This document shows, piece after piece, positions 5,595 through 33,190 of a DNA stretch of 33,190 nucleotides. Location: the NCBI GenBank assembly GCA_042576345.1, contig JBHPCE010000003.1, positions 1-33,190 of the forward strand. The letters are read 5' to 3'. Position 1 is the stretch's first letter, and the number at the start of each line of letters is the position of its first letter. The translations under genes and the position numbers were made by a program. The stretch comes from Candidatus Babelota bacterium. Lineage in GTDB: Bacteria; Babelota; Babeliae; Babelales; GCA-2401785. Under the pieces are notes generated by a model. It saw nothing but the letters and a program-made list of their open reading frames with translations. It was not told the origin of the DNA and did not search any database.

Positions 5595-5598
5595 TGAC

Positions 5599-7647: not shown

Positions 7648-7690
7648 CTAAAACCCCTTTCGCAAAATACATTATTAAAAGTATGGCGAG

Positions 7691-7718
7691 AGTTTAAAAA
7701 AATATATTTTTTTGTAAA
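7691..7718 (-). promoter_or_regulatory. Possible sigma70 promoter TTTACA-N16-TAAACT overlapping an 18-bp palindrome (A7-TATA-T7, 7696-7713)
   Basis: The minus strand reads tttaca-aaaaaatatatttttt-taaact, ~45 nt upstream of the 7647 start. The AT-rich context makes chance matches likely. Confidence 0.3.
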
Positions 7719-7738
7719 GAAGAAATTTTAGAAACCTG

Positions 7739-9421
7739 CTACTGGACCATGAAAAAATTGTTTTCAAAGTCCCAGGTCACAAAAGCCATCTCAGGACTGT
7801 ACCATTTTTCAGAAATCGTTATCAAAACATCAAAAGCACGGCCATTTTTACTCTTTAAAACCTCCAGAGTTCCCATGGTAAACGAAAACTTCCTCCCAAA
7901 CGGGTCGTGCGTACAAATCCATATTTTTTCCGGAGTATCTATTGAAATTCGTACTTTCTTACCATCAATACTGATATCAATTTTAGCGTCACTAGGCACT
8001 TTAAGCTCTTCTAGCGCTGTATGTATCTCTTTGCAGCAAACGTTCATCTGTGGATCGTGGTACACAGGATCCGCGTCATCCTTACGATAGATCCAAACAG
8101 CTTGTGCAGCCCCGGGACATGGAATCAACTCCTTTGGCACACCCACAAAGCAAATTGGTCTTCCCAAAAGCCTCTTATCTTCGGCCAAAGCTTTGAAAAC
8201 GTTATCAACAGAAACAAAGTACCTTTCTCTCGCCTTCGTACTTTCCATACAAAATATAAATCCGGCAACCAAGATCGTAATCCAATATCCACAAAAAATC
8301 ATTCGATTTTCGTACCACTTAAATCGACGTACAGAAGCCATACCAAGGCCAACGGCAGCTACCAAAAAAGGAATCCCTAGGTATAAATACCTTGCTTGAT
8401 GTGTAATTAAAATTGCTGGCCAAGAAAAAAATAAAAATCCAGAACCAATAAAAATCATATCCCTTTTACGATTTGATTTTACAAAAACATAAAGAATCCA
8501 GCTCAAAACTGCCAACACCAAAAGGCTTTTTGAAAATCTGTTTCCACCTGGAACAAAGGACAAACCCAAAGCGTCCACAACGAGAGTGACAAGGTCAAAA
8601 AACCGAAAACTCAACCTGTGCAAAAAATCCAAAGGCCTTAAAAGCATGTAATCAGAATTTGACGCGAGCGGGTACACCAAAAGTCTGAAAAACAAATTGA
8701 TTGCCACCACACCAAAGTAAGGCATTGAAACAAACAAAGATTTAACGACATTTTTCTTGATCGGCCAAATATCGCTGTCAAAATAAAATGGTAGCATACA
8801 AAAAAGCCACACCGGAAAAACGATTGTCGCTTCATGAACAAAAAGCACAATCGCAAAACACAAAATCGAAAAAATATACCAAAAAACACGTTTCTCATTA
8901 AAAAAACGTCTCAAAAACAAAATTGAAAGCCCAAGACCAAGAAAAGCCACGCTGTAGGTCTGCATAACAAATCTGCCTATAAACATCCCCATCATCGGAT
9001 AAACAACAAAAACCATAGACCCAAAAAAAGCGAACAAAAGAGGCATTATGAGAGATAAAATATAAAACAGCAAGGCCCCACAAGCCGAATGAAGCGCCAT
9101 AGAAACCAGAAAGTACGCATGAGGATTATTAGGACCAAAAAAATAAACTTCTGCTGCATACATCACCAACGCAAGCGGCCTGTACATAACTCCAAAAAAC
9201 GTCCACTCTGTGTCATCACGCATGTTTGAAGGTAAAATTGAGCGATCGTTAGGATTCGTTGTGAAAAAATCGGCAATATCCGAAACCGACTTTATGCTAC
9301 CGGCATGAACCGCACCGTAATCGTCGTCAAAAAAACGCCAATCTTTGTACGGAACTGTCCAGTAAAGGAATGAAATGCAAAAAACAAGACTCGCAATAAA
9401 AAACCGTTTGAGCATAACCAA
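7739..9421 (-). CDS. Polytopic GT-C-fold glycosyltransferase (ArnT/PMT/TMTC/GtrII-like)
   Basis: About 10-12 TM segments, an acidic DDD motif after TM1 (FFDDDYG), a YRPL motif, RYLY near the last TMs and a soluble C-terminal domain. Confidence 0.75.
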   Translation of the reverse strand: MVMLKRFFIASLVFCISFLYWTVPYKDWRFFDDDYGAVHAGSIKSVSDIADFFTTNPNDRSILPSNMRDDTEWTFFGVMYRPLALVMYAAEVYFFGPNNPHAYFLVSMALHSACGALLFYILSLIMPLLFAFFGSMVFVVYPMMGMFIGRFVMQTYSVAFLGLGLSILFLRRFFNEKRVFWYIFSILCFAIVLFVHEATIVFPVWLFCMLPFYFDSDIWPIKKNVVKSLFVSMPYFGVVAINLFFRLLVYPLASNSDYMLLRPLDFLHRLSFRFFDLVTLVVDALGLSFVPGGNRFSKSLLVLAVLSWILYVFVKSNRKRDMIFIGSGFLFFSWPAILITHQARYLYLGIPFLVAAVGLGMASVRRFKWYENRMIFCGYWITILVAGFIFCMESTKARERYFVSVDNVFKALAEDKRLLGRPICFVGVPKELIPCPGAAQAVWIYRKDDADPVYHDPQMNVCCKEIHTALEELKVPSDAKIDISIDGKKVRISIDTPEKIWICTHDPFGRKFSFTMGTLEVLKSKNGRAFDVLITISEKWYSPEMAFVTWDFENNFFMVQ

Positions 9422-9485
9422 CCCTCTTCCACATAAAAAAAGATGTTATACCCAGTAAAAGCCAAATATCTCCATTACACAACCG

Positions 9486-12400
9486 CTATTTTTTCTTTTC
9501 CTCTTTCTTCTCTTCCACTGGGTTAACATTGGTAAGTGTGTAAAGTATTAAATTGATGCCTTCGCGATCAAGGCGTCCCCCAGGTTGCTCTTTAGATTTA
9601 TTTTTTGAGTTCATGACGACCACGGAGTAGCTGTCATTATTTTTCGTAAAGCTAGCCGTGTACCAGTGACCTCCTTCGAAGATGATGGCGACAACAGGTG
9701 TTCCTGCATGGAATGATTTTAAGATTTGGGCGTATTGGGTGATGACTCCAAAATTGGTTATCATTTGGGCGGATGGTGTGGGTTTAGCCAGGATGAATGA
9801 AAGACCTGTGCTTTGATTTACGTTTCCAATTTCAACAAAAAATAATCTTTCATTTTCTTTAAGTTCAAAGTGAATCATTTGTTTCTGTAAGGCTTCCTTG
9901 TTAGCCATCCAAATTGGTTTCACTTCAAACCCTTTAAGTTCCGCCCATGAGGATTGTCCTTTATGTTCATTCAAAAGCAGCCGTGCCTGATAAAGTGCGT
10001 GAGTTCCGCATGTTTCCATGTTATCGCCCTGGTATGGTACAGGGAGTTGAGTGGCGGTGTATTTAGGAGTTTGAAGTTGTTTTTGATTTGCGCCTGTACC
10101 AAGCGCCATTGTTGAAACTTCAATTGATTTGAGACCGAGATTAAGAGCTGTGGGCATAATTTGTCGTTGTGGCCAGTGTACCATGTTGTGATCCAGGAAG
10201 AGCATCACGGCATAGCCATCTGTGCGAAAATCTAAATCTTGGTACTGACTTCCATCCCAGTGATAAAGCTTTGTGCCGTTCGTTGACATTTTGACAGAGG
10301 TTGCAGGGTGGTTGCCTCTTGGCTTGAGCATTGGAACTTGGAAGTAATAGTGGCCATGAAGTTGTGCAAAATCTTTGAAATTGAAGTGTGGTAGGGAGTT
10401 CACACTGAGAGTTTCTCTAAGACTCCCTCGGTCTTGTGCATTTCCAAAAAGTTGTGCTAGGTGTTGATCGTTATAATCTTGAAAGTTTTTCTTTTGTCCT
10501 GAATTGTCTGTGAACCATTTTTTCAAATTCTCTGTTTGAACTGCAGAGATCGATTTTTCTATAACTTGGAGGTTGTCTGGTGTGGCTTTTGCGGAAAGGT
10601 TTTTCTTCTGACTATGGCTATAGACACTTTTCGCATTGTCATCTCCTGTTCTCCGAATTTCCAGAATTCCATCCTGTCTAAGGTTCACATGGACACCACC
10701 AGCGTCAAAAGACCATTTTCCTGGTTGTTTTTTTGCAGAAAAGTCGTTGAATGTTGGGGCAAACGAGAGGTTGTTTGTTGTTGATACTATTTTCAGTGCG
10801 TTTTCAAGAAGTTGTTGTTCTTGTGCTTGAGGTTGAGGCTGCTGAGGTTGTGGTTGGGGCTGCTGAGGTTGTTGCTGTTGCTGTTGTTCTTGTGGCTGTT
10901 GTTGCTGTTGCGGAGCGGGTGGTTTCTTTCCTTTAACTCCAACGGTTTTTCTTTTCAGTATTGCGAGGGTTTCTGGTGATAGTTTGCCGAGGATGGTTAA
11001 ATTTTCTTCCCATTGCTGTGATTTGTGTATTTCTCCACTGGCCAGGTAAACAACTACTTGATCCTCATCATCATAAAAATGAACTGTTTTACTTTCTCCG
11101 TTGAATCTCCAGTCTCCTGGTTTGCTCATTTGTTCCAGCACCTTATTTGCCCAGCTTTTGTGCCTTTCGATGAATTTTTCTACAATCGTTAGCTCAAATT
11201 TTTTCAGATCTATAATATTTATATCCAAAATTGGGTCTTGGCTTAGGTCCTTGCCAGCAAAAACGACCTCTGCCCTTGTATTATTAGGATTGGTGAGTCT
11301 GTATATTTGTAGTGAATAATCTTCTTCAAGGTTGACATATATTTTCTGTCTATCATACCACCAGGTATTCCTTGTTGTGTTATTTTTTTTCGGCTGTGAA
11401 CTGATTACAATTCGTAATGCATTTGATAATAGATGTTTATCACGTTTTTCCTGAGTCAAATATTGAACTTTCCCTTGTATTGCTTTTTTGAAAGATTTGC
11501 TAAGATTTAATGAGTATTCTGTGTCGAGTATTTTATTGTCTATTGATGACACATTTGTTACGTTTTTATATGTGTGGTAAATTTTACTACAATCGTTAAT
11601 TTTTATTACAAATACTGTTGGCATCTTACTTAATTTAGGAATTTTAATCATGAAGTAAGAGGAGTCGGATGCAGTATGCCAGTCTTTAAGAGGTTCCTCT
11701 GGTTTGAGATTGTGGGTGTGTGGATGAGCAATTGAAATTGTGTATAAAGTCCTTCTTATTAAATCAGTGAACTCTTGTCGTATAAAATTTGCGAATGCTT
11801 GTTGCATCGCTTTCAATTCTTGTGAAGGATTTTTTTGTTCCATGTTGAGTTCTTGCCAATTTCCACTGGTGGAAGTACTGTATTGAAATATTGGAAACAT
11901 CGAATACCTCATGATTGTACTTAGAGGAATTCTCATTTTATCTTTTACAATGTGAAGGTACATATCAGTAAAATACAGGCTATTTACTAATGACAATCCC
12001 TGAAAATGTGAATACTTACTTGCTTCAAGTGTTTTAGTGGCATCTTTTAAAATTTGTTTGAGTTTCTCCGTTTGCTCTGCATGTGGTTTTTGCTTCTTAT
12101 AAGGGGTGATTTGAAATTCTGTTTTTATGCCAGTTTCTGGCGCCCATTCTTCTTCTTCTTCTTTCTTTTTTTCTTCTTTTTTAGGCTTCTTTTCTTTTTC
12201 TTCTTTAAAATGCAGAAATTTTCCTCTAATAAAAAAGTATCCAGATTCCCACCAGTTTTTATGTAGCGTAATGCCGGTATCACTGAACTCTGGCCATGAG
12301 CCTTGTGATTTTGTTGAAACAAAAACTTTTCCATCATTCACACTGATTTTGTAGTGATAATCTTCTGACTTGTGGGCTACGATGATGTGGCCGCTTGTTA

Positions 12401-14747
12401 CATATCTACCTGTAATCATCACCTGGCCTTTTTGAAGTTCTTTATGATCTGAAACTGTGACTAGCTTATCGGTTTTGGTGCTTGCGAGTTGGATGAGGCA
12501 GTGTCGTAGACGAGGGGCGTGATTATCACCGTGTGGAGTCAGTTTTTCAAGTAATCCTTTGAATGTGGTATCATCAAGTGCTTTTTTTGTATCGATCCAT
12601 TTGTAATCACTACCAGGAGGTGTTTTTGCGTACACCATTATAGCTTTTGTTGCTAAATTTGCGTAAAACATTTCATAATTTTCTACTTCCACTACTACGG
12701 ATGATCGTTCCTCTTTCTTTAAATAGGAAGTTCTCCATTGCGGAAATTGGTCTTTAATGCTTCCATCTTGCTGGTACGTGATGCTTTCGAATGAACTAAC
12801 TGCTTCAGCAAAATATTTTTCTTCCTGAGTTGGTGGTCTTTTGGGTTGAGGCGGAGATTTGGGTTGAGACCCGGGCGAAGGTTGTGGCTGTGGTTGTGTG
12901 CCAAATTTTGCAGTTCCGCATATTTGGCACGTATTATTACCTGAAGGATTTATGAAGGTACATGCTGAACAAGCCCAACGGAATGCGGCTGCCGAGCCAG
13001 ATATTGTTTTTTCTATACCCCCGAGAGTTTCATCAGCGACCGTGATTTGAAGTTCTCGAGAACTTGAGCCTTTAATGTGAAAAACTTTTCCTCGTCGGGC
13101 TGAGCTTGATCTATGGATTGCAATAATGCTACTGTCTTCAAGTTTTACATGAACTCCATATTTATCGTACGACCATGTGCCTGGCGCAGCTTTTTGTCCG
13201 AAAGCTCCAAAAGTATGATATTCTACAAGTTTATTTCGATCATTAAATATTGCTGATGATTTTCCAATGAGTTCTTGATCTGTTTCTTCTTTCGATTTTG
13301 GCACTAGTGGAGATTTAGGTTTAGGTTTGGCTCGTTCCACAGCTCTTATGTTGGTTTCGATTGTTTTAAGTTGTTCTTTAGTGGCTAGTGTGGTTAAGGT
13401 GACCGGTTGTGAGTATTCTTGTTGGCCTAAACTTTTATGTTTTGCAACCAATCCGGCATTTTTGTTGTCAGAAAAGTTTCTTTCAATCGACACAACAGTT
13501 GTATCGCTAACTTTTGCGAGAAATTGTGTGGCGTTGTAGCTCCAGTTCGAAATTTTTTCTTGAAACAAATCTTGTGCGCTTTTATATCCCTGAATTAAAT
13601 TATTTTGATTTGAAGAATGTTGAACTGCTTGTGTAATGAGGTCTTTTTCATATTTTTCAATTGCGGTTTTGATGCTTGAAGATTGTTGGTCTGTTGCCTT
13701 TATATTTTGTCGATTTATAAAGAAAACAATTGATTTGCTATAGCTTCCTAACGGTGCTAGAGACATGGAAACCATATTGCCGGATGTAAGTTTTGCATGT
13801 ACGAAGTTGCCAGCATATGTCCATTGAGAGTTTTGAAGTTGGTCTTTTGTTGCCCACTCTTGCATATTTTTGTTGTTTGAAATGATGCTAATTGCTTCTT
13901 GGATCATCAATTGTTGCGGTTGCTGAGGAACTGGAACAGCAGGCTCGTCAGGCACCACAGCTGGCTCGTCAGGAACCACAGCAGGCTCGTCAGATTCTGG
14001 GTGTTCTCGTTCTTTCTTTGTACTTTTTTCGCGCTTCAGTTTTGCTTCCTCTGGTGGTGGTTGGCCTGGGCCGGGTGGTGGTTTTTTTTGCACAGCGGTT
14101 AGAATTTGATCGATGTTGGGAATTTGTGTTGCGCCAGTGATGTAAGAAAGAAGTCTGCTCAGGGTTACAACAACTTCGGCTGGTGGAAGTGCAGAGAAAA
14201 ACGATGTGCCTTCAATTTTTTGGAATCTTGAAACCTGCCGTAATGTCATCTCTAAAAAAAGATTTTGTAGGGCAATGTAAAGTATTTCTTGTCCACCAAT
14301 CGTAGTACTGTGAAACACTGGTTTTTCTTCTTCGGTTGAACCACTCTGAAAAAATTTAGTTTTCCATTGCTTCACAAGATTTTGCTGTGTTTTATCTTCT
14401 GCGTGGGCTTTGATTTGCTCTGTTGCCAGTGCAATGGACATTTCTGCCATGATGCGCATCAAAATTTGTTTTCCGTGTTCTTCATTTAAGGTGTGCCACC
14501 TCCAATCTGGTTGGAAAATTCTTTTTTTGTAGTGTTCGACGGTGTTTTGTTCACCGACACGGACGAGAAAATCGTTGATTCCGATGTATGTGTGGCCATC
14601 TTCAACTTTGTGTGTGAGTGTGAAGTTGCTTTTGCGGACGCTGGCCTCAAGTTGTCCAGGGTCCACTACAGATGCGCCTTGCGCTGTAAAGAATTTTATG
14701 GTGAGTGACAAGGTTAGGATTATGATTTTTATAGTTTTATTTGCCAT
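9486..14747 (-). CDS. Giant secreted modular protein (putative effector): shared N-terminal domain, ~95-aa repeats, NZF zinc finger and a C-terminal Josephin-like cysteine protease
   Basis: Likely start ATG 14747 (MANKTIKIIILTLSLTIKFFTAQG, signal peptide); the ORF track starts at TTG 14798. Contains WACSACTFINPSGNNTCQICGT, C-terminal YQGDNMETCGTHAL...GGHWYTA...VVVMNS, and P/Q-rich linkers. Confidence 0.85.
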   Translation of the reverse strand: MANKTIKIIILTLSLTIKFFTAQGASVVDPGQLEASVRKSNFTLTHKVEDGHTYIGINDFLVRVGEQNTVEHYKKRIFQPDWRWHTLNEEHGKQILMRIMAEMSIALATEQIKAHAEDKTQQNLVKQWKTKFFQSGSTEEEKPVFHSTTIGGQEILYIALQNLFLEMTLRQVSRFQKIEGTSFFSALPPAEVVVTLSRLLSYITGATQIPNIDQILTAVQKKPPPGPGQPPPEEAKLKREKSTKKEREHPESDEPAVVPDEPAVVPDEPAVPVPQQPQQLMIQEAISIISNNKNMQEWATKDQLQNSQWTYAGNFVHAKLTSGNMVSMSLAPLGSYSKSIVFFINRQNIKATDQQSSSIKTAIEKYEKDLITQAVQHSSNQNNLIQGYKSAQDLFQEKISNWSYNATQFLAKVSDTTVVSIERNFSDNKNAGLVAKHKSLGQQEYSQPVTLTTLATKEQLKTIETNIRAVERAKPKPKSPLVPKSKEETDQELIGKSSAIFNDRNKLVEYHTFGAFGQKAAPGTWSYDKYGVHVKLEDSSIIAIHRSSSARRGKVFHIKGSSSRELQITVADETLGGIEKTISGSAAAFRWACSACTFINPSGNNTCQICGTAKFGTQPQPQPSPGSQPKSPPQPKRPPTQEEKYFAEAVSSFESITYQQDGSIKDQFPQWRTSYLKKEERSSVVVEVENYEMFYANLATKAIMVYAKTPPGSDYKWIDTKKALDDTTFKGLLEKLTPHGDNHAPRLRHCLIQLASTKTDKLVTVSDHKELQKGQVMITGRYVTSGHIIVAHKSEDYHYKISVNDGKVFVSTKSQGSWPEFSDTGITLHKNWWESGYFFIRGKFLHFKEEKEKKPKKEEKKKEEEEEWAPETGIKTEFQITPYKKQKPHAEQTEKLKQILKDATKTLEASKYSHFQGLSLVNSLYFTDMYLHIVKDKMRIPLSTIMRYSMFPIFQYSTSTSGNWQELNMEQKNPSQELKAMQQAFANFIRQEFTDLIRRTLYTISIAHPHTHNLKPEEPLKDWHTASDSSYFMIKIPKLSKMPTVFVIKINDCSKIYHTYKNVTNVSSIDNKILDTEYSLNLSKSFKKAIQGKVQYLTQEKRDKHLLSNALRIVISSQPKKNNTTRNTWWYDRQKIYVNLEEDYSLQIYRLTNPNNTRAEVVFAGKDLSQDPILDINIIDLKKFELTIVEKFIERHKSWANKVLEQMSKPGDWRFNGESKTVHFYDDEDQVVVYLASGEIHKSQQWEENLTILGKLSPETLAILKRKTVGVKGKKPPAPQQQQQPQEQQQQQQPQQPQPQPQQPQPQAQEQQLLENALKIVSTTNNLSFAPTFNDFSAKKQPGKWSFDAGGVHVNLRQDGILEIRRTGDDNAKSVYSHSQKKNLSAKATPDNLQVIEKSISAVQTENLKKWFTDNSGQKKNFQDYNDQHLAQLFGNAQDRGSLRETLSVNSLPHFNFKDFAQLHGHYYFQVPMLKPRGNHPATSVKMSTNGTKLYHWDGSQYQDLDFRTDGYAVMLFLDHNMVHWPQRQIMPTALNLGLKSIEVSTMALGTGANQKQLQTPKYTATQLPVPYQGDNMETCGTHALYQARLLLNEHKGQSSWAELKGFEVKPIWMANKEALQKQMIHFELKENERLFFVEIGNVNQSTGLSFILAKPTPSAQMITNFGVITQYAQILKSFHAGTPVVAIIFEGGHWYTASFTKNNDSYSVVVMNSKNKSKEQPGGRLDREGINLILYTLTNVNPVEEKKEEKKK
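9520..10050 (-). other. Josephin-like papain-fold protease domain (putative deubiquitinase)
   Basis: Q-x6-C-x2-H-x-L (Cys codon 10008-10010), HW (His codon 9666-9668) and NS (Asn codon 9609-9611) occur in the same order as Josephin Q..C.xHxL / HW / NS. Confidence 0.6.
10805..10920 (-). repeat. Low-complexity poly-Q/P linker (CAA/CAG/CCT-rich)
   Basis: Encodes PAPQQQQQPQEQQQQQQPQQPQPQPQQPQPQAQEQQ. Confidence 0.85.
12912..12977 (-). other. RanBP2/NZF-type C4 zinc finger with the TF/hydrophobic ubiquitin-binding signature
   Basis: Exact match to W-x-C-x2-C-T-F-x-N-x6-C-x-I-C. Confidence 0.85.
13931..13995 (-). repeat. 21-bp tandem repeat x~3 encoding (DEPAVVP)n
   Basis: SDEPAVVPDEPAVVPDEPAVPVP; ggctcgtcag recurs every 21 nt. 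Confidence 0.9.
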
Positions 14748-14845
14748 CGCTTTCTCATGGTTTTTTAGGGGGATTACAGTTAAATTAAAATATCTCAAAT
14801 TTTAAAATCAATACTCTATTGTTTGTTAAAAATATTGAAATTACT

Positions 14846-25456: not shown

Positions 25457-26200
25457 TTATGCAAAAATAATCCACTTGATTAACTGCCACAACGATATCA
25501 CTGTACAAGTTATCAGAATTAACACCGAAACAACTTTCAAGAACATCACTCTCGCCTTTTTTCTCTCTACTTTCACCCTTTCCAACCAGTCTTTTAAATG
25601 CCAATCGGTATAATGAACTCTTCCCGTCACGTAGTCTTCATAGTACCATTCCATTCTACTTGCCGCTTTGGGAAGCTCAAACTTTTTATATATCTTTAAG
25701 CCATCAAGCAAAGTTTCTCTTGCAGAGCTAAATTTATAACACCTTAATAAATCGCAAGCTAAATTTAATCGAACATTTATCCAAGTTGGTTCTAGTTGCA
25801 GTGCCTTTTCCAAATAATGAATAGACTTTCCGACATCGTTATTATCACTAAATAAAATCGAAAGCATGTAATTGCAGTCAACTCTGTTAGGGTCTAACGC
25901 TAACGCTTTTTCTACCAATTCGCGTTCTTTGGTAGGGTCCCCGAGTAACACATAATCTGCATATGCCCTCCAAAAAAGAGCGTCAACATTGTTTGGATCA
26001 ACATGTATCGCTCTGTCCAACGGCGGAAAAGCTAGCTTATCATCTTCAGATGCATCAAGATACAAAACACCTTTTTGGATAAGAAGATCTACATCATCAG
26101 GATTTTCTTTTAATTTCTTTTCCAGCTCATCCAACAAGGCATAATCTTTTTCCGTTCCAAAGCGCAGTATCACGCCACCGCTCTTACCTCTAATTATCAA
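25457..26200 (-). CDS. TPR protein with C-terminal TM anchor (array member 8; putative immunity)
   Basis: TPR helices (NPDDVDLLIQKG, DPNNVDALFWRA, EPTWI), YYEDYVTGR and a hydrophobic tail. TTG 26200 was chosen by homology with the 29875 start. Confidence 0.85.
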   Translation of the reverse strand: MIIRGKSGGVILRFGTEKDYALLDELEKKLKENPDDVDLLIQKGVLYLDASEDDKLAFPPLDRAIHVDPNNVDALFWRAYADYVLLGDPTKERELVEKALALDPNRVDCNYMLSILFSDNNDVGKSIHYLEKALQLEPTWINVRLNLACDLLRCYKFSSARETLLDGLKIYKKFELPKAASRMEWYYEDYVTGRVHYTDWHLKDWLERVKVERKKARVMFLKVVSVLILITCTVISLWQLIKWIIFA

Positions 26201-26247
26201 AAGATCCCCCAAGCTCCTCTAATTCATCTTTCATCTCTTTCAACCAA
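26155..26247. repeat. ~90-bp duplicated gene-junction segment, second copy at ~29830-29921
   Basis: tccaaagcgcagtatcacgccaccgctcttacctctaattatcaaa...tcatctttcatctctttcaacca vs tccaaagcgcagtattacgccaccaatcttccctctaattatcaaa...tcatctttcatttcttccaacca. Confidence 0.9.
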
Positions 26248-26249
26248 CA

Positions 26250-26972
26250 TCACTTCCCTCGCCCAGCACGCATTTTATTAATTTTTTCAATTTTAAATTT
26301 CATCGACTTGTCCAGTTCCATAGTACGTCCAGTTATGTAAAATTCTATGTATTCTTCCATAATGGAGGCATCCGAAGCAATCTCAATTTCCTCTGGATGT
26401 GACTGGACGTAATAGGCCAAATCTTCAGCTTCGTCAAGTCGACCTTGAGCCATAAACTTGCTAATCAATTTCACTTTTAAAAAAGGCCAAAACGGTTCAA
26501 GTTTTATTGCAATTTCCAGGTGCTTAACCGCACGCTCTACATCATCCTCAATGTAACAAACAATATCTGAAAGCAGAGAGTGACAGTCTGCTCTTTTATC
26601 ATCAATACTCAGGGCCAGAGTCAACATATCTATTGCCTGAAACATTTCAGCAATCAAATGGTATTGGGCCTCAGAAAACCAAAAAAGAGCATCAACATTA
26701 CGAGGCTCTAATTTAAGCGCCTGCTCAAAACATTTGATTGTATTGTCTACGTCCTCAAAGACATGGAAATATAAAAAGCCCTTTTCAACAAAAGCTTTTA
26801 CATTCTTGGGATTGACAGCAAGAACTTCATCCAATTCAGAAATTCTCTCAATCCCTCTATTAACTATTCCTATCTTCCCTCTCCCCCAAAGAAACTCATA
26901 TGTAAATAATAAACTACATTTGTCTACAAGAAATCGTACCCAATAGAATGTTAATTTTTGCCACGTGTTCAA
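26250..26972 (-). CDS. TPR protein, soluble (array member 7); true start uncertain, probably downstream
   Basis: NPKNVKAFVEKGFL, EPRNVDALFW, RADCH, EPFWP and YIEFYITGR. Confidence 0.82.
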   Translation of the reverse strand: MNTWQKLTFYWVRFLVDKCSLLFTYEFLWGRGKIGIVNRGIERISELDEVLAVNPKNVKAFVEKGFLYFHVFEDVDNTIKCFEQALKLEPRNVDALFWFSEAQYHLIAEMFQAIDMLTLALSIDDKRADCHSLLSDIVCYIEDDVERAVKHLEIAIKLEPFWPFLKVKLISKFMAQGRLDEAEDLAYYVQSHPEEIEIASDASIMEEYIEFYITGRTMELDKSMKFKIEKINKMRAGRGK

Positions 26973-27014
26973 CTAAACCATTTACAATAAATTCGCGCAT
27001 TACTTATTAAAAAT

Positions 27015-27731
27015 TTAAAGAAACTTGTATAAAATTATTGTTAATAATGCAACGAATAATGCGATAACAAATACGCAAAACCTACTAAGATACCCCTCAG
27101 GGATTTCCCCTATCTTCTCTAGAACTTTTTCAAAATCCTGCCTTGAATACTCTGTACGTCCTGTGATATGGTCTTCGAAATAAACTGCGATTTCATCGGC
27201 ATCCTGAGGCAATTCCAGAAATTCGCACAAATTCAAACCATCCTCAGCTACTTTTTTAGCTTCGGCAAATTCAAATCTGTTCATCAATCTTCCTATAAAC
27301 CTCATTCTAGGACCAGGCCAAGACGGCTCTAGCCGAATTACCATTCTGGAATGATACTTCACCTTAGAAAAATTTCTGGAAAGATTCTCTGAATATATCT
27401 CTGTTAAAAGATCATGACAATCGGCGCGATTGGGATCTATTTTTAACGCCTTTTCAAGTAACGATATTTCTTTTAGATCATCCCCCACAAGGTGATAATC
27501 TATTTTTGCAAGCCAAAAAAGTGCATCCACATTATCAGGCTCTAATTCTAGAGCCTTTTCTAAAGGTGGAATAGCCTGCTTATCATCTTCAAAATAATCA
27601 AAAAACAAAAAGCCCTTCTTTACTAATAGTGCCGTATTTTTTAGGTTTCTTTTAAATTCTTCATTTAATCTTGCTATAAATTTTAAACACTCAGAATCAC
27701 TGTAAAAAACATAATTATTAGACATTGACAA
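27015..27731 (-). CDS. TPR protein with C-terminal TM anchor (array member 6)
   Basis: KKGFLFF, EPDNVDALFWLA, DPNRADCH, EPSWP, YFEDHITGR and tail FCVFVIALFVALLTIILY. Confidence 0.85.
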   Translation of the reverse strand: MSMSNNYVFYSDSECLKFIARLNEEFKRNLKNTALLVKKGFLFFDYFEDDKQAIPPLEKALELEPDNVDALFWLAKIDYHLVGDDLKEISLLEKALKIDPNRADCHDLLTEIYSENLSRNFSKVKYHSRMVIRLEPSWPGPRMRFIGRLMNRFEFAEAKKVAEDGLNLCEFLELPQDADEIAVYFEDHITGRTEYSRQDFEKVLEKIGEIPEGYLSRFCVFVIALFVALLTIILYKFL

Positions 27732-27736
27732 GTTCC

Positions 27737-29875
27737 CTACTTGGCCAAAGCATCCTTAACAACTTCTTCTATTTCTCTGGCCAACTTTGTAATCCAATCG
27801 TGATTTCTTTTTTCCAGGGCCCTTGCATAATACTGCTTTGTTTTCTCACTAAATGACATTTTCTTTAAATTTTTAGATTTTTGAATAGCCTCATTTAAAT
27901 GATGCTGTGCCTTCTCAATATCAAATTCTTCATGCAAAAAATAATTTCCCATATTTATGTGTGGTGCTATCCAAGACGGGTTCTTTTCCAGATCCCTTTC
28001 GATCGAATACTCATGCCATTTCCGCCACCCTCTGTACAAACCCTCAACAGCACAAATCATTAAATTTTGATACTCAAGATTCTCTTCATCGATAATGAGA
28101 GCCCTTTCCAAAACCTCCTTAGCGCTTTGTGCATCACCACGACCATAAAGATGTGTCCACGCAAGCCAATAATAAGCCTCAATATTAATATTTTTATCAA
28201 TTTCGATAGCCCTTTCTAATGCAGGACCAGCTTCTCTCGGGCCTTCGAAAACAACTGCGCATAAAGCCCCAAATTCGACTAATGCACCAACATCTTTTGG
28301 ATTACTCCTTAGGTGTTCACTCAAAATATTATATCTTTCCAAATCCCCAGAAGATCCAAGCTCCATGGACAAATCAAATCCATAGTATTTACTGTTATAA
28401 TCACATCCAAAAAAAACCTTCCTTACAAGATTGCTGAAAATACCAACTAATGAACTATTGTAACTATGACCCTTATAATTGATATCACGAGAAAGAATTG
28501 GAATGAGACAAGAGTGATCATATTTTAGTCTAAATTTCTTATAATATCTTTCCATGCATTGTTTGAACTTTATCCGTTCCAGCCCATATTCAATATCTCG
28601 GGCAATTTCAACAGCCCTGCCCGCACCTGCAAAATCTCGTAATAAAAGCCTGTGTTTGCCAATCATGATATGCGACACTAACCACCCTGGATGTTTTTCT
28701 TTCACCATCAATATACTCTCTGCGTTTTTTTCTACATTCCAAAGAAACTTTCGTTCAAAAATTCTGACCATCATGATCTGGAGCTCATAACATTTTCCAT
28801 CTAACCGAAGGGCCTTTTCCAGTATCTTTATTGCTCTTTCCAAATCTATTGGATGTAAGTAAAAGAGTGTTACAACCAACCAAAAATGAGCTTCAATATT
28901 TTTAGGCTCAATTTCAAGGGCACGATTCAAAGCTTTTTTTACTTCCCTAGAACCCTCGAAAATAACCGAACATAGGGCTCCAAATTCAACTAACGCATCT
29001 ACATCATCAGGATTTTTATTGAGATGCGACTTCAATTCTTCAAAACGGTCAACATCTTCATACCAACCAAGATGCATCTTTAAACTAACGAGCTTTTCCT
29101 CTTCCCTCCGTCTTCTTTCTTCAATTTTGTCCTCTCCATCAGCTGATATTGATTTGTAACTGTAAGTAGTATCTCTTTCTGAACTCTTTTTCCAAAAACT
29201 CATTTTTCTTAGCATTGATTTAACAACACCAATATCCGAATTTCGCTCTTTGGCTTCAATAACCGAAGAAAGAATATATGCACCTGAAACTTCTACCAAA
29301 GCTTCCATAAAAATTCTGTAATATCTCTCTGTTCTTCTGCTGTAAAATCTTTTTTTTACCAGCAAATCTTCTAGCCTGTACGCATCTCTCAAAGCACATT
29401 TTGCACCACTAATGTTATTGTGATGTAAAAATGCGTGCCCAAGGTTTATATAAGAAGCAACAAATGACGGATATTTTTTAACATAATCAATTGCCAACTC
29501 AATCTGTACGTCGTGAACAAGGTCTATGGCTTTAGCCAGAAGATATTGTGTATCAAAATTATCTATATCGAGTAAAACAGCTTTCTCTAGATACTTTTTG
29601 GCACTCCCACCATCAGAACAGTCAAATAAATACGTTCTACCAATCCAGTAGTATGCCTCAATATTCTTATCATCCAACTCTATAGCTTTTTTCAAAGCTA
29701 TAATCGCGTCTCCAGGCCCTTCGAAAACAACGGAACACAATGCTCCAAATTCAATCAACGCATCCACATCATCAGGATTACGCTCTAGATGCTCATCAAG
29801 TTCGTATAAACGAGCCTTTTCCTCCAAGGATCCAAAGCGCAGTATTACGCCACCAATCTTCCCTCTAATTATCAA
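27737..29875 (-). CDS. TPR protein made of three fused array units (array member 5)
   Basis: NP.DV.AL.EFGALC.V.FEG occurs three times, each followed by NIEA[YH][YF]W. Confidence 0.85.
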   Translation of the reverse strand: MIIRGKIGGVILRFGSLEEKARLYELDEHLERNPDDVDALIEFGALCSVVFEGPGDAIIALKKAIELDDKNIEAYYWIGRTYLFDCSDGGSAKKYLEKAVLLDIDNFDTQYLLAKAIDLVHDVQIELAIDYVKKYPSFVASYINLGHAFLHHNNISGAKCALRDAYRLEDLLVKKRFYSRRTERYYRIFMEALVEVSGAYILSSVIEAKERNSDIGVVKSMLRKMSFWKKSSERDTTYSYKSISADGEDKIEERRRREEEKLVSLKMHLGWYEDVDRFEELKSHLNKNPDDVDALVEFGALCSVIFEGSREVKKALNRALEIEPKNIEAHFWLVVTLFYLHPIDLERAIKILEKALRLDGKCYELQIMMVRIFERKFLWNVEKNAESILMVKEKHPGWLVSHIMIGKHRLLLRDFAGAGRAVEIARDIEYGLERIKFKQCMERYYKKFRLKYDHSCLIPILSRDINYKGHSYNSSLVGIFSNLVRKVFFGCDYNSKYYGFDLSMELGSSGDLERYNILSEHLRSNPKDVGALVEFGALCAVVFEGPREAGPALERAIEIDKNINIEAYYWLAWTHLYGRGDAQSAKEVLERALIIDEENLEYQNLMICAVEGLYRGWRKWHEYSIERDLEKNPSWIAPHINMGNYFLHEEFDIEKAQHHLNEAIQKSKNLKKMSFSEKTKQYYARALEKRNHDWITKLAREIEEVVKDALAK

Positions 29876-29876
29876 A

Positions 29877-30524
29877 CTATCCCTCGAGTTCCTCTATCTC
29901 ATCTTTCATTTCTTCCAACCACTCTTTATCAATACCTGCCCTACCTGTAACACAATTTTCATAGTATGAATCATAATCAGTCTTAATTTCTGGTTTTATA
30001 GTTTTATTCACTGTACACATTGCTTGCTTTATTTCTTTTCTAGCCTCATCCAATCTCCGCTCCTTAATCAGATAACGGATTAAGGAAATTCTTGGAAATG
30101 GCCAATTAGGCTCTAATTCTATAGCCTTCTTATAATGATTTTCTGCCAGTGTTTTTTGGTTAAATTCATAATATAATATTGATGCTAAGAAGGTATGACA
30201 ATCTGCCCTGAAAGGGTCTATCTTTACTGCCTCCTCTAATACCGTTCGTGTTTTATTTTCATCACAAAACTCATGATAATATGTTTTAGCAAGCCAAAAG
30301 CGAGCTTCAGTATTATCAGGTTCTAACTCAATAACACGGCCCAAACATTCCGTAGCCTCTTCAGGACTCATAAATGGGCCACCGATGCACAAAAATCCTT
30401 TTTCTAAAAGAGCTTCAACATCGTCATGGTTATCACTAATCCTTTTTTCTAAAACTTGCATTCGCTCATTTTGCTTTGCACTCCCGCGCCCTCTGCGCCC
30501 AAAGTGCTTTTCACTGTAATTCAT
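29877..30524 (-). CDS. TPR protein, soluble (array member 4)
   Basis: DDVEALLEKGFL, EPDNTEARFWLA, DPFRADCH, EPNWP and YYENCVTGR. Confidence 0.85.
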   Translation of the reverse strand: MNYSEKHFGRRGRGSAKQNERMQVLEKRISDNHDDVEALLEKGFLCIGGPFMSPEEATECLGRVIELEPDNTEARFWLAKTYYHEFCDENKTRTVLEEAVKIDPFRADCHTFLASILYYEFNQKTLAENHYKKAIELEPNWPFPRISLIRYLIKERRLDEARKEIKQAMCTVNKTIKPEIKTDYDSYYENCVTGRAGIDKEWLEEMKDEIEELEG

Positions 30525-30547
30525 TAGCCATATTAATTACTCTGAAC

Positions 30548-31255
30548 TTATGTAAAAACAGCCCACTTAATTAACTGCCACAGGAAAATGGCCGCACAAA
30601 TTGCCAGCACAAATTTCAATATAAACTTTGAAACTATCGCCCTCACCCTCTTTTCCTCTGCGTCCACCCGCTCCAACCAGTCTTTTAAATGCCAATCGGT
30701 ATAATGAACTCTTCCCGTCACGTAGTCTTCATAGTACCACTCCATCCTACTTGCCGATTTGGGAAGTTCAAACTTTTTATATATCTTTAAACCATCAAGC
30801 AAAGTTTCTTTTACAGCTATAAAGTCACAACACCTCAAAAACTCATCAACCAATTTTATCCTAACATATATCCACGTTGGCTCTTGTTTCAGTGCTTTTT
30901 CCAAATAATGAATAGACTTGTGTGGATCGCTGTCTCTAAAGACTGTTGAAATAATAGAATTGCAGTCAGCTCTGTCAGGATCTATTGACAAAGCTTTTTC
31001 CAACAACTCACGTCTCTTTACATCGTCACCAAGTAAAGCCAAATCTGCATATGCCCTCCAAAAAAGTGCATCAACATTCTTTGGATCAATCTGTATCGCT
31101 CTGTCCAGCGGCGGAAAGGCCATTTCATCATCTTCAAATGCATCGAGACACAAAAAACCTTTTTGGATAAGAAGATCTACATCATCAGGATTTTCCTTCA
31201 GCTGCTCTTCTAACTTATTCAATAATACGCAACACTTTTCTGTTATAGATATCAT
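30548..31255 (-). CDS. TPR protein with C-terminal TM anchor (array member 3); close paralog of 25457..26200
   Basis: The start MISITEK overlaps the upstream stop as ATGA (31252-31255). It shares ETLLDGLKIYKKFELPK.ASRMEWYYEDYVTGRVHYTDWHLKDWLERV with member 8. Confidence 0.85.
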   Translation of the reverse strand: MISITEKCCVLLNKLEEQLKENPDDVDLLIQKGFLCLDAFEDDEMAFPPLDRAIQIDPKNVDALFWRAYADLALLGDDVKRRELLEKALSIDPDRADCNSIISTVFRDSDPHKSIHYLEKALKQEPTWIYVRIKLVDEFLRCCDFIAVKETLLDGLKIYKKFELPKSASRMEWYYEDYVTGRVHYTDWHLKDWLERVDAEEKRVRAIVSKFILKFVLAICAAIFLWQLIKWAVFT

Positions 31256-31962
31256 GAAAAGATATTCCAAATTACCATGAAAATAGTAGTAACCACTAAA
31301 ATAGCACTCAAGAAAAAATACCAAATTCTTCTGTGTATCCTTTTGAGGCAAACATTAAAATCGTACTTTGTGTAATAGGCCCTTCCGGTAACAAAATTTT
31401 CTATGTAAAAAGTCTTCCTATCCGCATCCACAGGCAACTTAAATTCATTGAATAGCCTTAAGCCTTCCAACGTTTCGGATCTAGCCTTAAGCAAACGAAA
31501 ACTCATTATTAAAAGATCGACAAACCAAAGGCGAATATTTGGCCAATTTGGCTCCAAACGCACAGCTTTCTCTAAATTTTCCAAACACCCACTGCTAAAC
31601 CCTTCAATGGAAAACAAAACAGACGCTAAAAGATAACGACAATCGGCACGATTTGGATCAACCTTCAAAGCTCTTATTAAAAACTTTTCAGCGGAACTCA
31701 TATCACCGATACAGTAAAAATGCATACTTGCAAGCCAAAATAAAGCATCGATATTATTTGGATCAAGCTCAATAGCCTTTCTTAAAGCGGGTTCAGCCTC
31801 ACCGTCATCCTCAAAAATTGTTACACATAAAAAGCCCTTTTCGATTAGCAAGTCCACATTATTAGGCTCATTTGACAATCGCTTATTAATACTCTGCAAA
31901 TACCTATGGTCTTCTACACTTCCGAATCTTCTGTCAGCAACCATATCTTCTATATATCCCAA
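31252..31962 (-). CDS. TPR protein with C-terminal TM anchor (array member 2)
   Basis: RFGS, NVDLLIEKGFL, DPNNIDALFWLA, DPNRADC, EPNWP, YIENFVTGR and a hydrophobic tail. Confidence 0.85.
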   Translation of the reverse strand: MGYIEDMVADRRFGSVEDHRYLQSINKRLSNEPNNVDLLIEKGFLCVTIFEDDGEAEPALRKAIELDPNNIDALFWLASMHFYCIGDMSSAEKFLIRALKVDPNRADCRYLLASVLFSIEGFSSGCLENLEKAVRLEPNWPNIRLWFVDLLIMSFRLLKARSETLEGLRLFNEFKLPVDADRKTFYIENFVTGRAYYTKYDFNVCLKRIHRRIWYFFLSAILVVTTIFMVIWNIFS

Positions 31963-31980
31963 ACATTAGGAAAGAGTATT

Positions 31981-32670
31981 TTACCTTCTCCAAAATAAAA
32001 ATTTCTTGAAAAAACTATAAATCCAATGAAAAATCCGATGAAAAAATGATTTTTCCCTACTAACCCTCAAATCCCTAAGTAAACTCGACAAATCATTTTT
32101 TGTATAATGCCCAATACCTGTAACATGCAGTTTATAAAATTCATCCATAAACAGATATTTGGGCTTGAACACAAGGCCTATTTCATCTAATCTCAAACCA
32201 TCGTTTAAAATGTTTTCCGCCATTCCACTAAAACCAAACTCTGCAAGGATATTTGCAAACCTAATCCTTTGTCCAATCCAATATGGCTCAATCTTTATAG
32301 CCCTCTTCATATAAATAATTGCTTTTAAAAAACTCACAATTCTGTTTTGCGTTAAAAAAAATAAAATTTCAGCCAACAAAGCAATACACTCTACGCCATT
32401 TTTATCTATTTCTAGGGCTTCTTCAAGCACATCTTTTGCCTTATAAACGTCTCCATATCCATTGTAATAAACATTTGCCAAAAGAAACCGTGCGTGAATA
32501 TTTTTTTTATCTAACTTAATAGCTTTTATGATTGCAGATGCAGCTTCGGAAGGCTTTTCAAGATCGTAAAATAGCAAAAACCCCTTTTCTAAAAGTAATA
32601 AAAGATCAGCTCCGTCTTTTAGCAATTTTTTATTGATAAGATCCAAACGTGCTAATCCACTTTTGTTCAT
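31981..32670 (-). CDS. TPR protein (array member 1; candidate cognate immunity)
   Basis: LLEKGFLL, KNIHARFLLA, EPYWI, FYKLHVTGI and an aromatic/amphipathic tail. It starts ~40 nt after the toxin-like ORF stop. Confidence 0.82.
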   Translation of the reverse strand: MNKSGLARLDLINKKLLKDGADLLLLLEKGFLLFYDLEKPSEAASAIIKAIKLDKKNIHARFLLANVYYNGYGDVYKAKDVLEEALEIDKNGVECIALLAEILFFLTQNRIVSFLKAIIYMKRAIKIEPYWIGQRIRFANILAEFGFSGMAENILNDGLRLDEIGLVFKPKYLFMDEFYKLHVTGIGHYTKNDLSSLLRDLRVSREKSFFHRIFHWIYSFFKKFLFWRR

Positions 32671-32709
32671 AATTCAACAAATCCTCATCATACATTCATC
32701 ACTCAACCA

Positions 32710-33189
32710 TTAACGAAAATAGCAAATACCATCAATAAACATTGTACCTATATAAATTTGATATCTATGCAAACCCATAAACCTATGAATGATATTACTA
32801 GATAACAACGGATCTATGTGTTTCACTGCCCCCCTTATCACAACGGGATAGCCATTTATAATTCTACATAATTCATAACCACCATTTTCCGCTATTTTTC
32901 CTAGATTCCACGCACTTCTCGCAATACCTACAAATGCATCAGAAACTTCCTTTGTCATTGTCATCATTTGATCTCTCTTAGGATTATCTAAAAGTCTAGT
33001 TGTTTCACTCAATAAATGGAGCCTATGTTTAGCGGCTCCAATTATGTGATCCCACTTATAGCTTTTTAAAACTCTCATTGGCTTATCAACTATTTCCAAA
33101 ATATATTCCTTACATTTTACTCCTTGTCCACCAACCTCCCTAGCTCCCTCAGAAACACGCATAATCTCAGTATGATTTGGATTTAGTAG
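32710..33189 (-). CDS. C-terminal part of a larger protein; putative polymorphic toxin tip (Ntox35-like RNase)
   Basis: The frame is open to the window edge (LLNPNHTEI-MRVS...). WDHIIGAAKH gives an H plus KH motif, followed by PVVIRGAV and IGTMFI near the C-terminus. Confidence 0.5.
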   Translation of the reverse strand, partial: LLNPNHTEIMRVSEGAREVGGQGVKCKEYILEIVDKPMRVLKSYKWDHIIGAAKHRLHLLSETTRLLDNPKRDQMMTMTKEVSDAFVGIARSAWNLGKIAENGGYELCRIINGYPVVIRGAVKHIDPLLSSNIIHRFMGLHRYQIYIGTMFIDGICYFR

Positions 33190-33190
33190 A

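Follow-up and report, generated by a model that had tools for sequence, protein, structure and literature searches.

Gene content at the end of contig C3

The window, that is, the whole 33,190-nucleotide stretch of DNA analysed here, is the entire contig C3 of an assembly of 767 kb that is 62% complete. An ORF of 159 codons, on the minus strand and open at the edge, lies at the end of the contig and is followed by eight paralogous TPR genes in the same direction. A sequence-only reading of this DNA had described an edge ORF with the motifs HI-x4-KH, VVIRG, and IGTMFI, followed by eight co-oriented and tightly packed TPR paralogs with 10 units. The motifs are present in the ORF at 32710–33189, its frame is open at the window edge, and the description of the array was borne out by Pfam TPR matches, by tblastn, and by the gaps between neighboring ORFs (−4 to 42 nt). 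The locus comprises the following features:

32710..33189, minus strand: putative Ntox35-like toxin tip ORF, 159 codons, open at the contig end; domain at approximately residues 25–153
33025..33048, minus strand: codons of the predicted catalytic helix, H48 to K54-H55, with H-x6-H spacing
31981..32670, minus strand: TPR gene 1, 229 aa; the most divergent unit, on a long branch in a quick tree
31252..31962, minus strand: TPR gene 2, 236 aa; C-terminal membrane anchor at approximately 31255–31326 (hydropathy 2.42)
30548..31351, minus strand: TPR gene 3, 267 aa from the first TTG; C-terminal anchor at approximately 30551–30637 (hydropathy 2.39)
29877..30524, minus strand: TPR gene 4, 215 aa; no anchor
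27737..29875, minus strand: TPR gene 5, 712 aa; three units in one polypeptide of the poly-immunity type
27015..27731, minus strand: TPR gene 6, 238 aa; C-terminal membrane anchor at approximately 27018–27083 (hydropathy 2.69)
26250..26972, minus strand: TPR gene 7, 240 aa from the first TTG; no anchor
25457..26212, minus strand: TPR gene 8, 251 aa; C-terminal membrane anchor at approximately 25460–25549 (hydropathy 2.43)

TPR genes 2 and 3 share an ATGA stop/start overlap at 31255–31252, and the ATG at 31255 is a likelier start for gene 3 than the first TTG. A UDP-GlcNAc 2-epimerase gene adjoins TPR gene 8. The tip ORF has an in-frame ATG at 33162, with nine codons between this ATG and the contig end; because the frame is open by only these nine codons, the ORF may be the 3′ part of a longer gene, or it may be a free-standing cassette of 150 codons. 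No clear ribosome-binding site was seen at the ATG, and scans for promoters and terminators stayed at chance level (27 found versus 26.7 expected; 5 versus 5.3). In a search for the missing upstream part of the gene, no other contig overlapped the C3 end (k = 21–127), and the last 600 bases of C3 had no other match anywhere in the assembly.

The TPR family

Each of the eight TPR genes exceeds the curated cut-off of at least one of the Pfam families TPR_17, TPR_19, TPR_11, and TPR_14. The genes match one another far beyond chance (tblastn E 1e-8 to 1e-102), and genes 3 and 8 are 68% identical. The family HMM delimits three domains in gene 5 (residues 6–227, 262–489, and 491–706); in a quick tree with SH-aLRT support, unit a of this gene groups with the TPR gene beside a full-length toxin on contig C27. 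The TPR proteins had been read as lacking signal peptides, and none of the eight showed an N-terminal signal-like hydrophobic stretch by eye or in a Kyte–Doolittle scan. Four of them (genes 2, 3, 6, and 8) end in a strongly hydrophobic stretch, with a 19-residue mean hydropathy of 2.39–2.69. These hydrophobic C-termini had gone unmentioned in the earlier reading. Immunity proteins against cytoplasmic nucleases rarely carry membrane anchors, which counts against the immunity function that we propose below.

The family HMM finds 24 domains in 18 ORFs on nine contigs of this genome. At E ≤ 1e-10, the match counts are 19 in the present genome, nine in a congener (G001), and at most three in each of the other 149 genomes of the order that were searched. 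Of the 10 family ORFs outside C3, seven sit at contig ends or close to them, and breaks in this assembly tend to fall within these repeated genes. The member on contig C13 has a lipoprotein-type N-terminus. A scan of a genome collection with four TPR units returned a Chloroflexi TPR hit, which was weak (26% identity) and named no relative.

The putative toxin tip and Ntox35

Against PF15534 (Ntox35, gathering score 23.6 bits) the window tip stays below the cut-off, and no Pfam family matched it at E ≤ 1. A six-frame scan of the genome with PF15534 at E ≤ 10 gave two hits, neither of them on C3, C27, or C56, and neither the tip nor the carrier proteins matched NCBIfam. A single relative, a 164-aa protein (E 1.1e-4), was found among 1.84 billion representatives, and the C-terminus of an 885-aa ORF on C27 carries the same motifs as the window tip. 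A profile of these three tips finds a 624-aa ORF in the congener and matches a 1782-aa protein (E 2.3e-5) of a related genome, G155; Pfam assigns the tip of this protein to Ntox35 (E 1.6e-12).

Comparison of five window-type tips with 28 Pfam-positive Ntox35 tips of the phylum in hhalign gave a probability of 96.1% (E 3.4e-9, 72 columns). With the window tip and its 164-aa relative only, the value was 95.1%, and with the window tip alone 42.7%; controls with a reversed target and two unrelated alignments gave 0.1–0.3%. No ORF in this genome was matched at E ≤ 10 by plain HMMs of the Pfam-positive tips, whether built on all 28 or on the 18 of subfamily ii (see below). Because HMMs of Pfam-positive tips alone match nothing here, the link between the window tip and Ntox35 rests on the reverse search and the profile–profile comparison. 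Both histidines are invariant in the 33 aligned tips (33/33), and the motif H48 plus K54-H55 is present in the window tip; its spacing (H-x6-H) exceeds that of the G155 Ntox35 tip (H-x5-H) by one residue. Judged by these alignments, the window tip is a divergent relative of Ntox35 and not a member of the Pfam family. The Ntox35 identity proposed in the earlier reading, for which an HMM check was run, thus holds at the level of a divergent relative (hhalign 96.1%) and fails as a PF15534 match.

Other searches yielded no further relatives. Word-index searches in the 'near' and 'longer' modes returned the window tip itself only, and likewise for the G155 tip; a metagenome scan with the tip profile gave 91 pattern matches, of which none was confirmed. 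A 2788-aa representative (E 2.7e-6, 17 stretches) was dropped on inspection, as a 31-residue piece had matched repetitive low-complexity sequence. Phage-portal fragment clusters retrieved from the ESM Atlas (0.94; 135/256 shared features) were treated as chance (pLDDT of the Atlas model 0.35), and this result is perhaps a 'fragment' signal.

An AlphaFold2 (AF2) model of the tip built with the family alignment (pLDDT 80.7, pTM 0.70) predicts helices followed by a three-stranded sheet, the BECR fold being defined by an N-terminal helix and a sheet of four strands; a first model from a two-row alignment (pLDDT 43.8) was unusable. Foldseek found no match to the model at E ≤ 0.001. The best VIA-align score (Z 4.8) is under the level that the tool treats as trustworthy, and 10 of the best 12 rows, at weak Z of 3.9–4.8, are chains of CDI or toxin–antitoxin complex entries; the alignment with BrnT (3u97_A) is likewise weak (Z 3.4, rmsd 3.1, 63 aligned). 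Complex prediction for the tip with TPR gene 1 gave no answer (score 0.00) and is evidence neither way.

Carrier proteins of related toxins

A HINT-like end and a hydrophobic segment are common to the paralogs on contigs C27, C56, and C1, which differ in their C-termini. Ending in H-N-G at the C-terminus is a typical feature of HINT domains. No carrier scored above the gathering score of the pretoxin HINT family PF07591 (27.7 bits); there were sub-threshold hits at the expected place in the C53 toxin of the congener (residues 43–144; E 0.003, 18.3 bits) and in the C1 ORF (E 0.0099, 15.5 bits), and none in the C27 toxin. The HINT-like region matched neither Hint_2 nor any of the PDB sequences. 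Full-length window-type toxins begin with Sec-type signal peptides, as the toxins of the congener do. In the main protein of G155, no Pfam family other than Ntox35 was above cut-off, and no two-partner secretion domain was detected.

Linkage of tips and TPR genes

PF15534 is above cut-off in 24 of the 261 genomes of the phylum, which makes Ntox35-type toxins common in these reduced-genome parasites. We examined the Ntox35 loci of other genomes for 30 of 42 matches; two were dropped for stops, which left 28 tips. Directly downstream of 17 of these 28 tips (from 30 of 42 matches) lies an ORF of the TPR family, which has 211–251 aa and starts between −36 and +18 nt from the tip stop. The match of these 17 ORFs to the HMM of the window TPR family covers nearly their whole length (E 7e-7 to 2e-19). 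The other 11 tips, from the same 30 of 42 matches, comprise one with a partial TPR-family match and 10 without a match. The pairing follows tip type: among the matches examined (30 of 42), a TPR gene comes after 17 of 18 tips of subfamily ii versus 0 of 10 of subfamily i, and the 17 TPR-followed tips are spread over 16 different genomes. Judged by position, the candidate immunity gene is directly downstream of the tip and tip-type-specific.

Four of the six TPR loci in the congener follow an ORF matched by the tip profile; the fifth follows an ORF that resembles toxin tips by eye, and the sixth begins at a contig end. In the present genome, tips on C3, C27, and C56 and a truncated 90-aa tip on C10 are each followed by TPR-family genes, a pair in the case of C10. 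The expectation from the earlier reading that homologs of this TPR family follow toxin tips was thus upheld in the 17 of 28 tips (30 of 42 matches), in the congener, and at these four loci. TPR-family loci with no tip in the available sequence occur in genomes G037 and G066 and on C6, C13, C22, and C57 of this genome, which counts against an immunity function.

In G155, the main Ntox35 tip is followed by a TPR-like gene that aligns with the window TPR family in hhalign (96.1%, E 2.8e-9, 197 columns). Two orphan modules are also present, one of which has a different tip and then a CdiI_ImmP immunity gene (E 1.9e-29). As placed in the sequence, the TPR-like gene holds the same slot as the CdiI immunity gene in a textbook toxin locus.

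Comparison with known systems

A polymorphic toxin with a poly-immunity locus is an already known kind of system, and TPR immunity families are already published for toxins with this fold. Ntox35 is a predicted BECR-fold RNase with conserved H and KH (PMC3482391, Table 2); the sequence-only reading had likewise described it as a predicted RNase with these residues. The Ntox35 toxin of the Staphylococcus aureus S8-Ntox35 system is reported to kill Listeria, and its H205A substitution to abolish killing (bioRxiv 10.1101/2025.07.24.666436). Like Ntox35, the window tip has H and KH on a predicted N-terminal helix followed by a predicted small beta-sheet, has paralogs in which the tip is at the C-terminus of multi-domain proteins that are probably exported, and has a small gene directly 3′ of it. 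Unlike Ntox35, it lacks a Pfam match and has one extra residue between the two histidines and a longer helical insert. Its carriers also differ, having a Sec signal and a HINT-like module in place of the BetaH domain with S8 peptidase of the S8-Ntox35 system.

TPR immunity families paired with BECR toxins are described for Gram-positive bacteria (PMC9424270). Compared by the description given there, TPR-Imm1 to TPR-Imm4 of the S8 polymorphic toxin system resemble the window family in being TPR solenoids without signal peptides directly after BECR-fold tips; the window family differs in its size (~210–250 aa), conserved C-terminal motif, phylum, amplification to 24 units, and partial tail anchoring. 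Tandem paralogous immunity-type genes also form the homogeneous poly-immunity loci of PMC3482391 (section 39), and fused units as in its poly-immunity proteins occur in the 712-aa gene, on C57, C10, and C56, and on C53 of the congener. The loci described in that source usually have no toxin gene, whereas the window array is headed by a tip. The G155 locus resembles CdiA-CT/CdiI and Rhs loci with orphan toxin–immunity modules (PMC3150448): the 1782-aa main gene is followed by immunity genes and orphan modules, in which the pre-tip region recurs with other tips. It differs from CdiA-CT/CdiI in that no two-partner secretion domain was detected, and carriers in the genus of the window are much shorter.

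Proposed function and alternative explanations

We consider it probable that the end of C3 is a polymorphic toxin locus, composed of an Ntox35-type predicted RNase tip and a TPR immunity array. A toxin with TPR immunity had been the interpretation of the sequence-only reading, and comparative genomics largely sustains it through tip homology and tip–TPR linkage. From these observed sequence relationships and gene linkage we infer RNase activity, binding, neutralization, an export route, and a target. The window tip is probably the end of an exported protein of 470–890 aa, by analogy with the C27 paralog and the toxins of the congener, and the full toxin would consist, in order, of a signal peptide, a pretoxin-HINT-like self-cleaving module, a hydrophobic segment, a linker, and the tip; alternatively, the ORF may be a free-standing orphan cassette. 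The eight TPR genes would belong to an immunity family that partners such tips throughout the phylum. By position, TPR gene 1 is probably the cognate immunity gene, whose product would bind the tip and block its active site in the cytoplasm of the producer. The other seven genes (nine units, including one triple fusion) would make up a poly-immunity array of the homogeneous type that protects against related tips from other strains, with the four tail-anchored units held on the cytoplasmic side of the inner membrane.

The same gene pairing would suit any binding partner and not only an inhibitor, so the TPR proteins could instead be helpers of the toxin, such as export chaperones, adaptors, or activation partners. 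Small TPR proteins serve as secretion chaperones in other systems, and tail anchors would put these proteins at the membrane, the site of export. We find such a role unlikely, however: full-length toxins have Sec-type signal peptides and need no dedicated chaperone, eight genes with 10 units behind a single tip fit immunity hoarding better, and 24 units versus four detected tips in the genome are unlike one chaperone per client. The CdiI-type immunity gene in the equivalent slot of the neighboring G155 orphan module also argues against helpers. That the TPR family is instead an expansion of eukaryote-like repeat effectors against the protist host, next to an unrelated or decayed tip ORF, appears very improbable to us. 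TPR and ankyrin proteins of the phylum are interpreted as host-interaction factors in PMC4776705, the TPR expansion is lineage-specific, and one member has a lipoprotein signal. However, the window copies lack N-terminal signal peptides, the window tip has the predicted catalytic residues in an intact frame, and a TPR gene directly follows 17 of 18 tips of one subfamily in 16 genomes (30 of 42 matches examined).

The locus could also be purely defensive, with the tip a silent orphan cassette and the array protecting only against toxins of other strains. Consistent with this are the tip's own ATG nine codons from the contig end, which has no clear ribosome-binding site, the truncated or orphan tips known on C10 and in G155, and the large excess of immunity units over tips; excess immunity in general is interpreted as a 'cheater' strategy in PMC3482391. 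Against it, the stretch before the tip domain looks linker-like by eye, as in the full-length paralog, and contigs tend to break in these repeated genes (seven of 10 family ORFs outside C3 at or close to contig ends); we judge a silent tip to be improbable. This alternative differs from an active toxin locus only in the expression of the window copy.

Implications

A literature search found no report of polymorphic toxins in Dependentiae; the Dependentiae papers listed mention neither contact-dependent systems nor Rhs, and PMC6561590 mentions neither toxins nor immunity. Ntox35-type toxins of the phylum gain a candidate partner family, as the 2012 catalog lists none for Ntox35 (PMC3482391, Table 2). 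These findings also caution that the expanded TPR families of intracellular bacteria may not all be host effectors.

On a broader and considerably more tentative view, which we think may well be wrong, parasites across the phylum (obligate, with protist hosts and genomes of ~1 Mb) would be engaged in an arms race of Ntox35-type RNases and TPR immunity. In this genus, it would have escalated to two dozen units (~2% of the assembled DNA), with membrane-anchored and fused forms intercepting the toxin at the inner membrane. In that case, parasites living together in one host cell or host population would kill one another, and part of the 'eukaryote-like repeat effectors' in these genomes would be antibacterial immunity. 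Competition among co-infecting intracellular bacteria, as the sequence-only reading suggested, is speculation. The tail-anchored and triple-fused TPR units provide material for the study of how a repeat scaffold diversifies toward toxin variants.

Organization of the window locus

The window spans all of contig C3, which comes from an incomplete genome assembly (G000; 766,731 bases, 57 contigs, 61.84 per cent complete), and all genes of the locus lie on its minus strand. The main features of the window are as follows.

32710-33189, minus strand: tip ORF (candidate C-terminal toxin domain), open at the contig end
down to 25457, minus strand: eight co-oriented ORFs 3' of the tip, numbered 1 to 8 from the tip onward
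31255-31252, minus strand: 4-base ATGA overlap between TPR genes 2 and 3
4356-14798, minus strand, and 2871-4337, plus strand: five large ORFs (427, 682, 560, 1770, and 488 aa) without a Pfam family at E<=1e-5
3-1298, plus strand: Macro-domain ORF (E 9.1e-11) that runs off the opposite contig end

What the sequence-only reading had observed here was confirmed as a whole: the ORF with its quoted motifs (HI-x4-KH, VVIRG, and IGTMFI), the eight tightly packed TPR genes, and their ten units, a count that follows from one match to the family HMM in each of seven ORFs and three in a 712-aa ORF (gene 5). All eight array genes pass curated Pfam cut-offs for TPRs and match each other with E 1e-8 to 1e-102 (tblastn). 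Their junctions range from the ATGA overlap, where the gene 2 stop and the likely start (ATG) of gene 3 share bases, a classic sign of translational coupling, up to 42 bases. The tip ORF has an in-frame ATG at 33162, just nine codons from the open contig end, with no clear ribosome-binding site in front of it, and promoter and terminator pattern scans stayed at chance level. A feature absent from the sequence-only reading is a hydrophobic C-terminal stretch in TPR genes 2, 3, 6, and 8 (19-residue mean hydropathy of 2.39-2.69), which would fit a membrane anchor. A sugar-nucleotide and polysaccharide gene cluster adjoins the array on its downstream side.

Linkage of the TPR family to predicted toxin tips in the phylum

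The strongest result of our analysis is the linkage of this TPR family to such tips, which the sequence-only reading had proposed to check. Of 261 genomes from the phylum, 24 have a match to Pfam Ntox35 (PF15534) that passes the cut-off. We surveyed 30 of the 42 PF15534 matches listed (L031-L060) and dropped two with stops interrupting the frame (n = 28). At 17 of these 28 loci, a frame of 211-251 aa starts between -36 and +18 bases from the tip stop and matches the window TPR HMM nearly end to end; the other 11 comprise one locus with a partial match and 10 without a match. The Ntox35 tips at these loci fall into two subfamilies. Members of one carry a tail of 13-24 residues beyond the Pfam match and have a TPR gene in 17 of 18 cases. 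Members of the other end right after the Pfam match, and because none of these ten tips has a TPR family gene downstream, this tail-less subfamily must have another partner.

Homologs of the window's own, Pfam-negative tip type show the same arrangement. In a congener (G001), four of six TPR loci follow an ORF matched by the tip profile (E 2.4e-10 to 8.7e-18), one of these being a split ORF of 82 aa; a fifth locus follows a 577-aa ORF that is similar by eye and has no tip-profile match, and the sixth begins at a contig end. Window-type tips also precede a TPR gene in two other genomes, G014 and G053 (E 3.4e-8 and 7.3e-9). At the TPR loci of G037 and G066, a search of the 1.5-kb flanks found no tip.

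Relationship of the window tip to Ntox35

Taken on its own, the window tip is nearly an orphan. It matches nothing in Pfam at E<=1 and nothing in NCBIfam, a word-index search among similar-length and longer proteins returned only the tip itself, and a six-frame scan of G000 with the Ntox35 model at E<=10 left it untouched. The direct comparison with the Ntox35 HMM that the sequence-only reading had proposed therefore came out negative. As a single sequence, the tip matched none of 60 related genomes. An exhaustive search of 1.84 billion representatives yielded one credible relative, a protein of 164 aa (E 1.1e-4); a 2788-aa match from that search was discarded by inspection as repetitive sequence.

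Further relatives come from G000 itself, in which an informative upstream gene is present at three other TPR loci (contigs C27, C56, and C10). The 885-aa ORF of C27 starts with a signal-peptide-like stretch. After it come a region with an H-N-G end, a hydrophobic segment, an extended linker, and a tip-like C-terminus that shares a helix motif and strand motifs with the window tip; the end of the ORF is overlapped by a TPR family gene. On C56, a 5'-open ORF with a C27-like H-N-G end, a hydrophobic segment, and a related tip is followed by a two-unit TPR gene, and on C10 a truncated C56-type tip of 90 aa is flanked by a secretin gene on one side and a further two-unit TPR gene on the other. A profile of all aligned tips matches exactly four ORFs of G000, those of the window, C27, C56, and C10 (E 1.5e-18 to 0.0021).

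A bridging profile of the window tip, the 164-aa relative, and the C27 C-terminus, searched over the 261 genomes, matches two genomes besides G000. In G001, it matches a 624-aa ORF followed 17 bases on by a TPR family gene, and in G155, from another family of the same order, a 1782-aa protein. The latter is the product of the main gene of a textbook polymorphic toxin locus (L027; contig C4, 268000-286000), with the following genes in order along the strand.

first: main gene with a signal peptide and a Pfam Ntox35 tip (E 1.6e-12, 48.4 bits)
second: TPR-like gene of 225 aa, full-length match to the profile of the window TPR family (hhalign 96.1%, E 2.8e-9, 197 columns)
third: orphan module repeating the pre-tip hydrophobic region with a different tip, then a CdiI_ImmP gene (E 1.9e-29)
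fourth: second TPR-like gene
fifth: second orphan tip, Ntox35-like (E 3.7e-4), shortened and adjoining a transposase-like ORF
last: third TPR-like gene

Five window-type tips were compared with an alignment of 28 Pfam-positive tips, all drawn from other genomes in this phylum.

Table. hhalign probabilities for comparisons with the alignment of 28 Pfam-positive tips, and for controls.
Five window-type tips: 96.1%, E 3.4e-9, 72 columns (His helix through strands)
Window tip and 164-aa relative: 95.1%
Window tip alone: 42.7%
Reversed target (control): 0.3%
Two unrelated alignments (controls): 0.1% and 0.2%

Against the Ntox35 link counts that plain HMMs built from the Pfam-positive tips alone match no ORF of G000 at E<=10. 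Both His residues are invariant in the 33-row tip alignment, with a spacing one residue longer in the window's type than in the G155 tip; an S. aureus Ntox35 toxin is reported to depend on one of the two His residues (bioRxiv 10.1101/2025.07.24.666436). The AF2 model from this alignment (pLDDT 80.7, pTM 0.70) has helices followed by three strands. Foldseek found nothing significant with it. In VIA-align, 10 of the 12 top rows come from entries for complexes of contact-dependent-inhibition or toxin-antitoxin proteins, with Colicin D and BrnT further down, and all of these have Z of 3.4-4.8, which by the tool's own account may reflect a mere common arrangement. We therefore regard the window tip as a divergent relative of Ntox35 and not as a member of the Pfam family.

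Amplification of the TPR family

At E<=1e-10, the TPR family has 19 matches in G000, nine in G001, and at most three in any of 149 other genomes of the order, many of the latter being partial matches in long, unrelated TPR proteins. Its 24 HMM domains in G000 are spread over 18 ORFs and nine contigs. Seven of the 10 ORFs outside the window are at or near contig ends, which suggests that the assembly tends to break at these repeats.

A quick tree, with SH-aLRT as its sole support measure, places the units of G000 and G001 together in one clade (support of 99), separate from the clade of genes that partner canonical Ntox35 tips (99). The window units are deeply diverged from one another, genes 3 and 8 excepted, and unit one of the triple gene clusters with the TPR gene adjacent to the C27 toxin (96). 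The three-unit proteins of G000 and G001 correspond in part: the second units share one supported clade (98) and the third units another (99), while no grouping is seen for the first.

Relation to known systems

The interpretation of the sequence-only reading is supported for the architecture and the family relationships. The locus is best assigned to an already known kind of system, a polymorphic toxin with poly-immunity; poly-immunity loci and proteins have both been described (PMC3482391, sections 38, 39, and 46). In Table 2 of that work, Ntox35 appears among the predicted BECR-fold domains, with H and KH as its motif and no immunity family listed. Four TPR immunity families, of which the window family may be one, and pairing of BECR domains with TPR-like families, are described in PMC9424270. 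TPR proteins of the phylum have been interpreted as host-interaction factors (PMC4776705), and our literature searches on polymorphic toxins in this phylum found no paper. What makes the locus notable is its TPR partner family, how far that family has been amplified in a reduced genome, and the presence of anchored and fused units.

By likeness to studied polymorphic toxins, we propose an activity, a binding partner, an export route, and a target for the tip. It would be exported on a carrier, released, and cleave RNA in the recipient cell. In the producer, the adjacent TPR protein would bind the tip and cover its His helix; extra units would neutralize variant tips arriving from other strains, in the case of the anchored ones perhaps at the membrane.

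Carriers and further loci outside the window

A HINT-like module in the carrier proteins has weak support. PT-HINT matches a G001 toxin (E 0.003) and an ORF of contig C1 (E 0.0099) where it would be expected but under its cut-off, and the other tests (C27 against PT-HINT; Hint_2; PDB sequences) gave nothing. Four further loci were noted in G000.

C1:2-3314 (L061): carrier with a HINT-like end, a hydrophobic segment, and a different C-terminus, then three paralogous genes of ~200 aa without a Pfam match
C6:23959-27722 (L003): the C1-type ~200-aa family again, with two stand-alone genes and two fusions in which it forms the N-terminal half and a TPR family unit the C-terminal half
C13:19535-20521 (L005): TPR family member whose N-terminus resembles a lipoprotein signal, a hydrophobic stretch followed by Cys
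C10:1284-9304 (L004): truncated tip and TPR pair directly after the secretin gene (Pfam Secretin, E 1.6e-30)

The fusion proteins of C6 look like mixed poly-immunity proteins. By its signal, the C13 protein would be located outside the cytoplasm, in contrast to the other family members. On C10, a second secretin paralog lies 2 kb beyond, and the pair recalls the two gspD copies reported for the phylum (PMC4776705).
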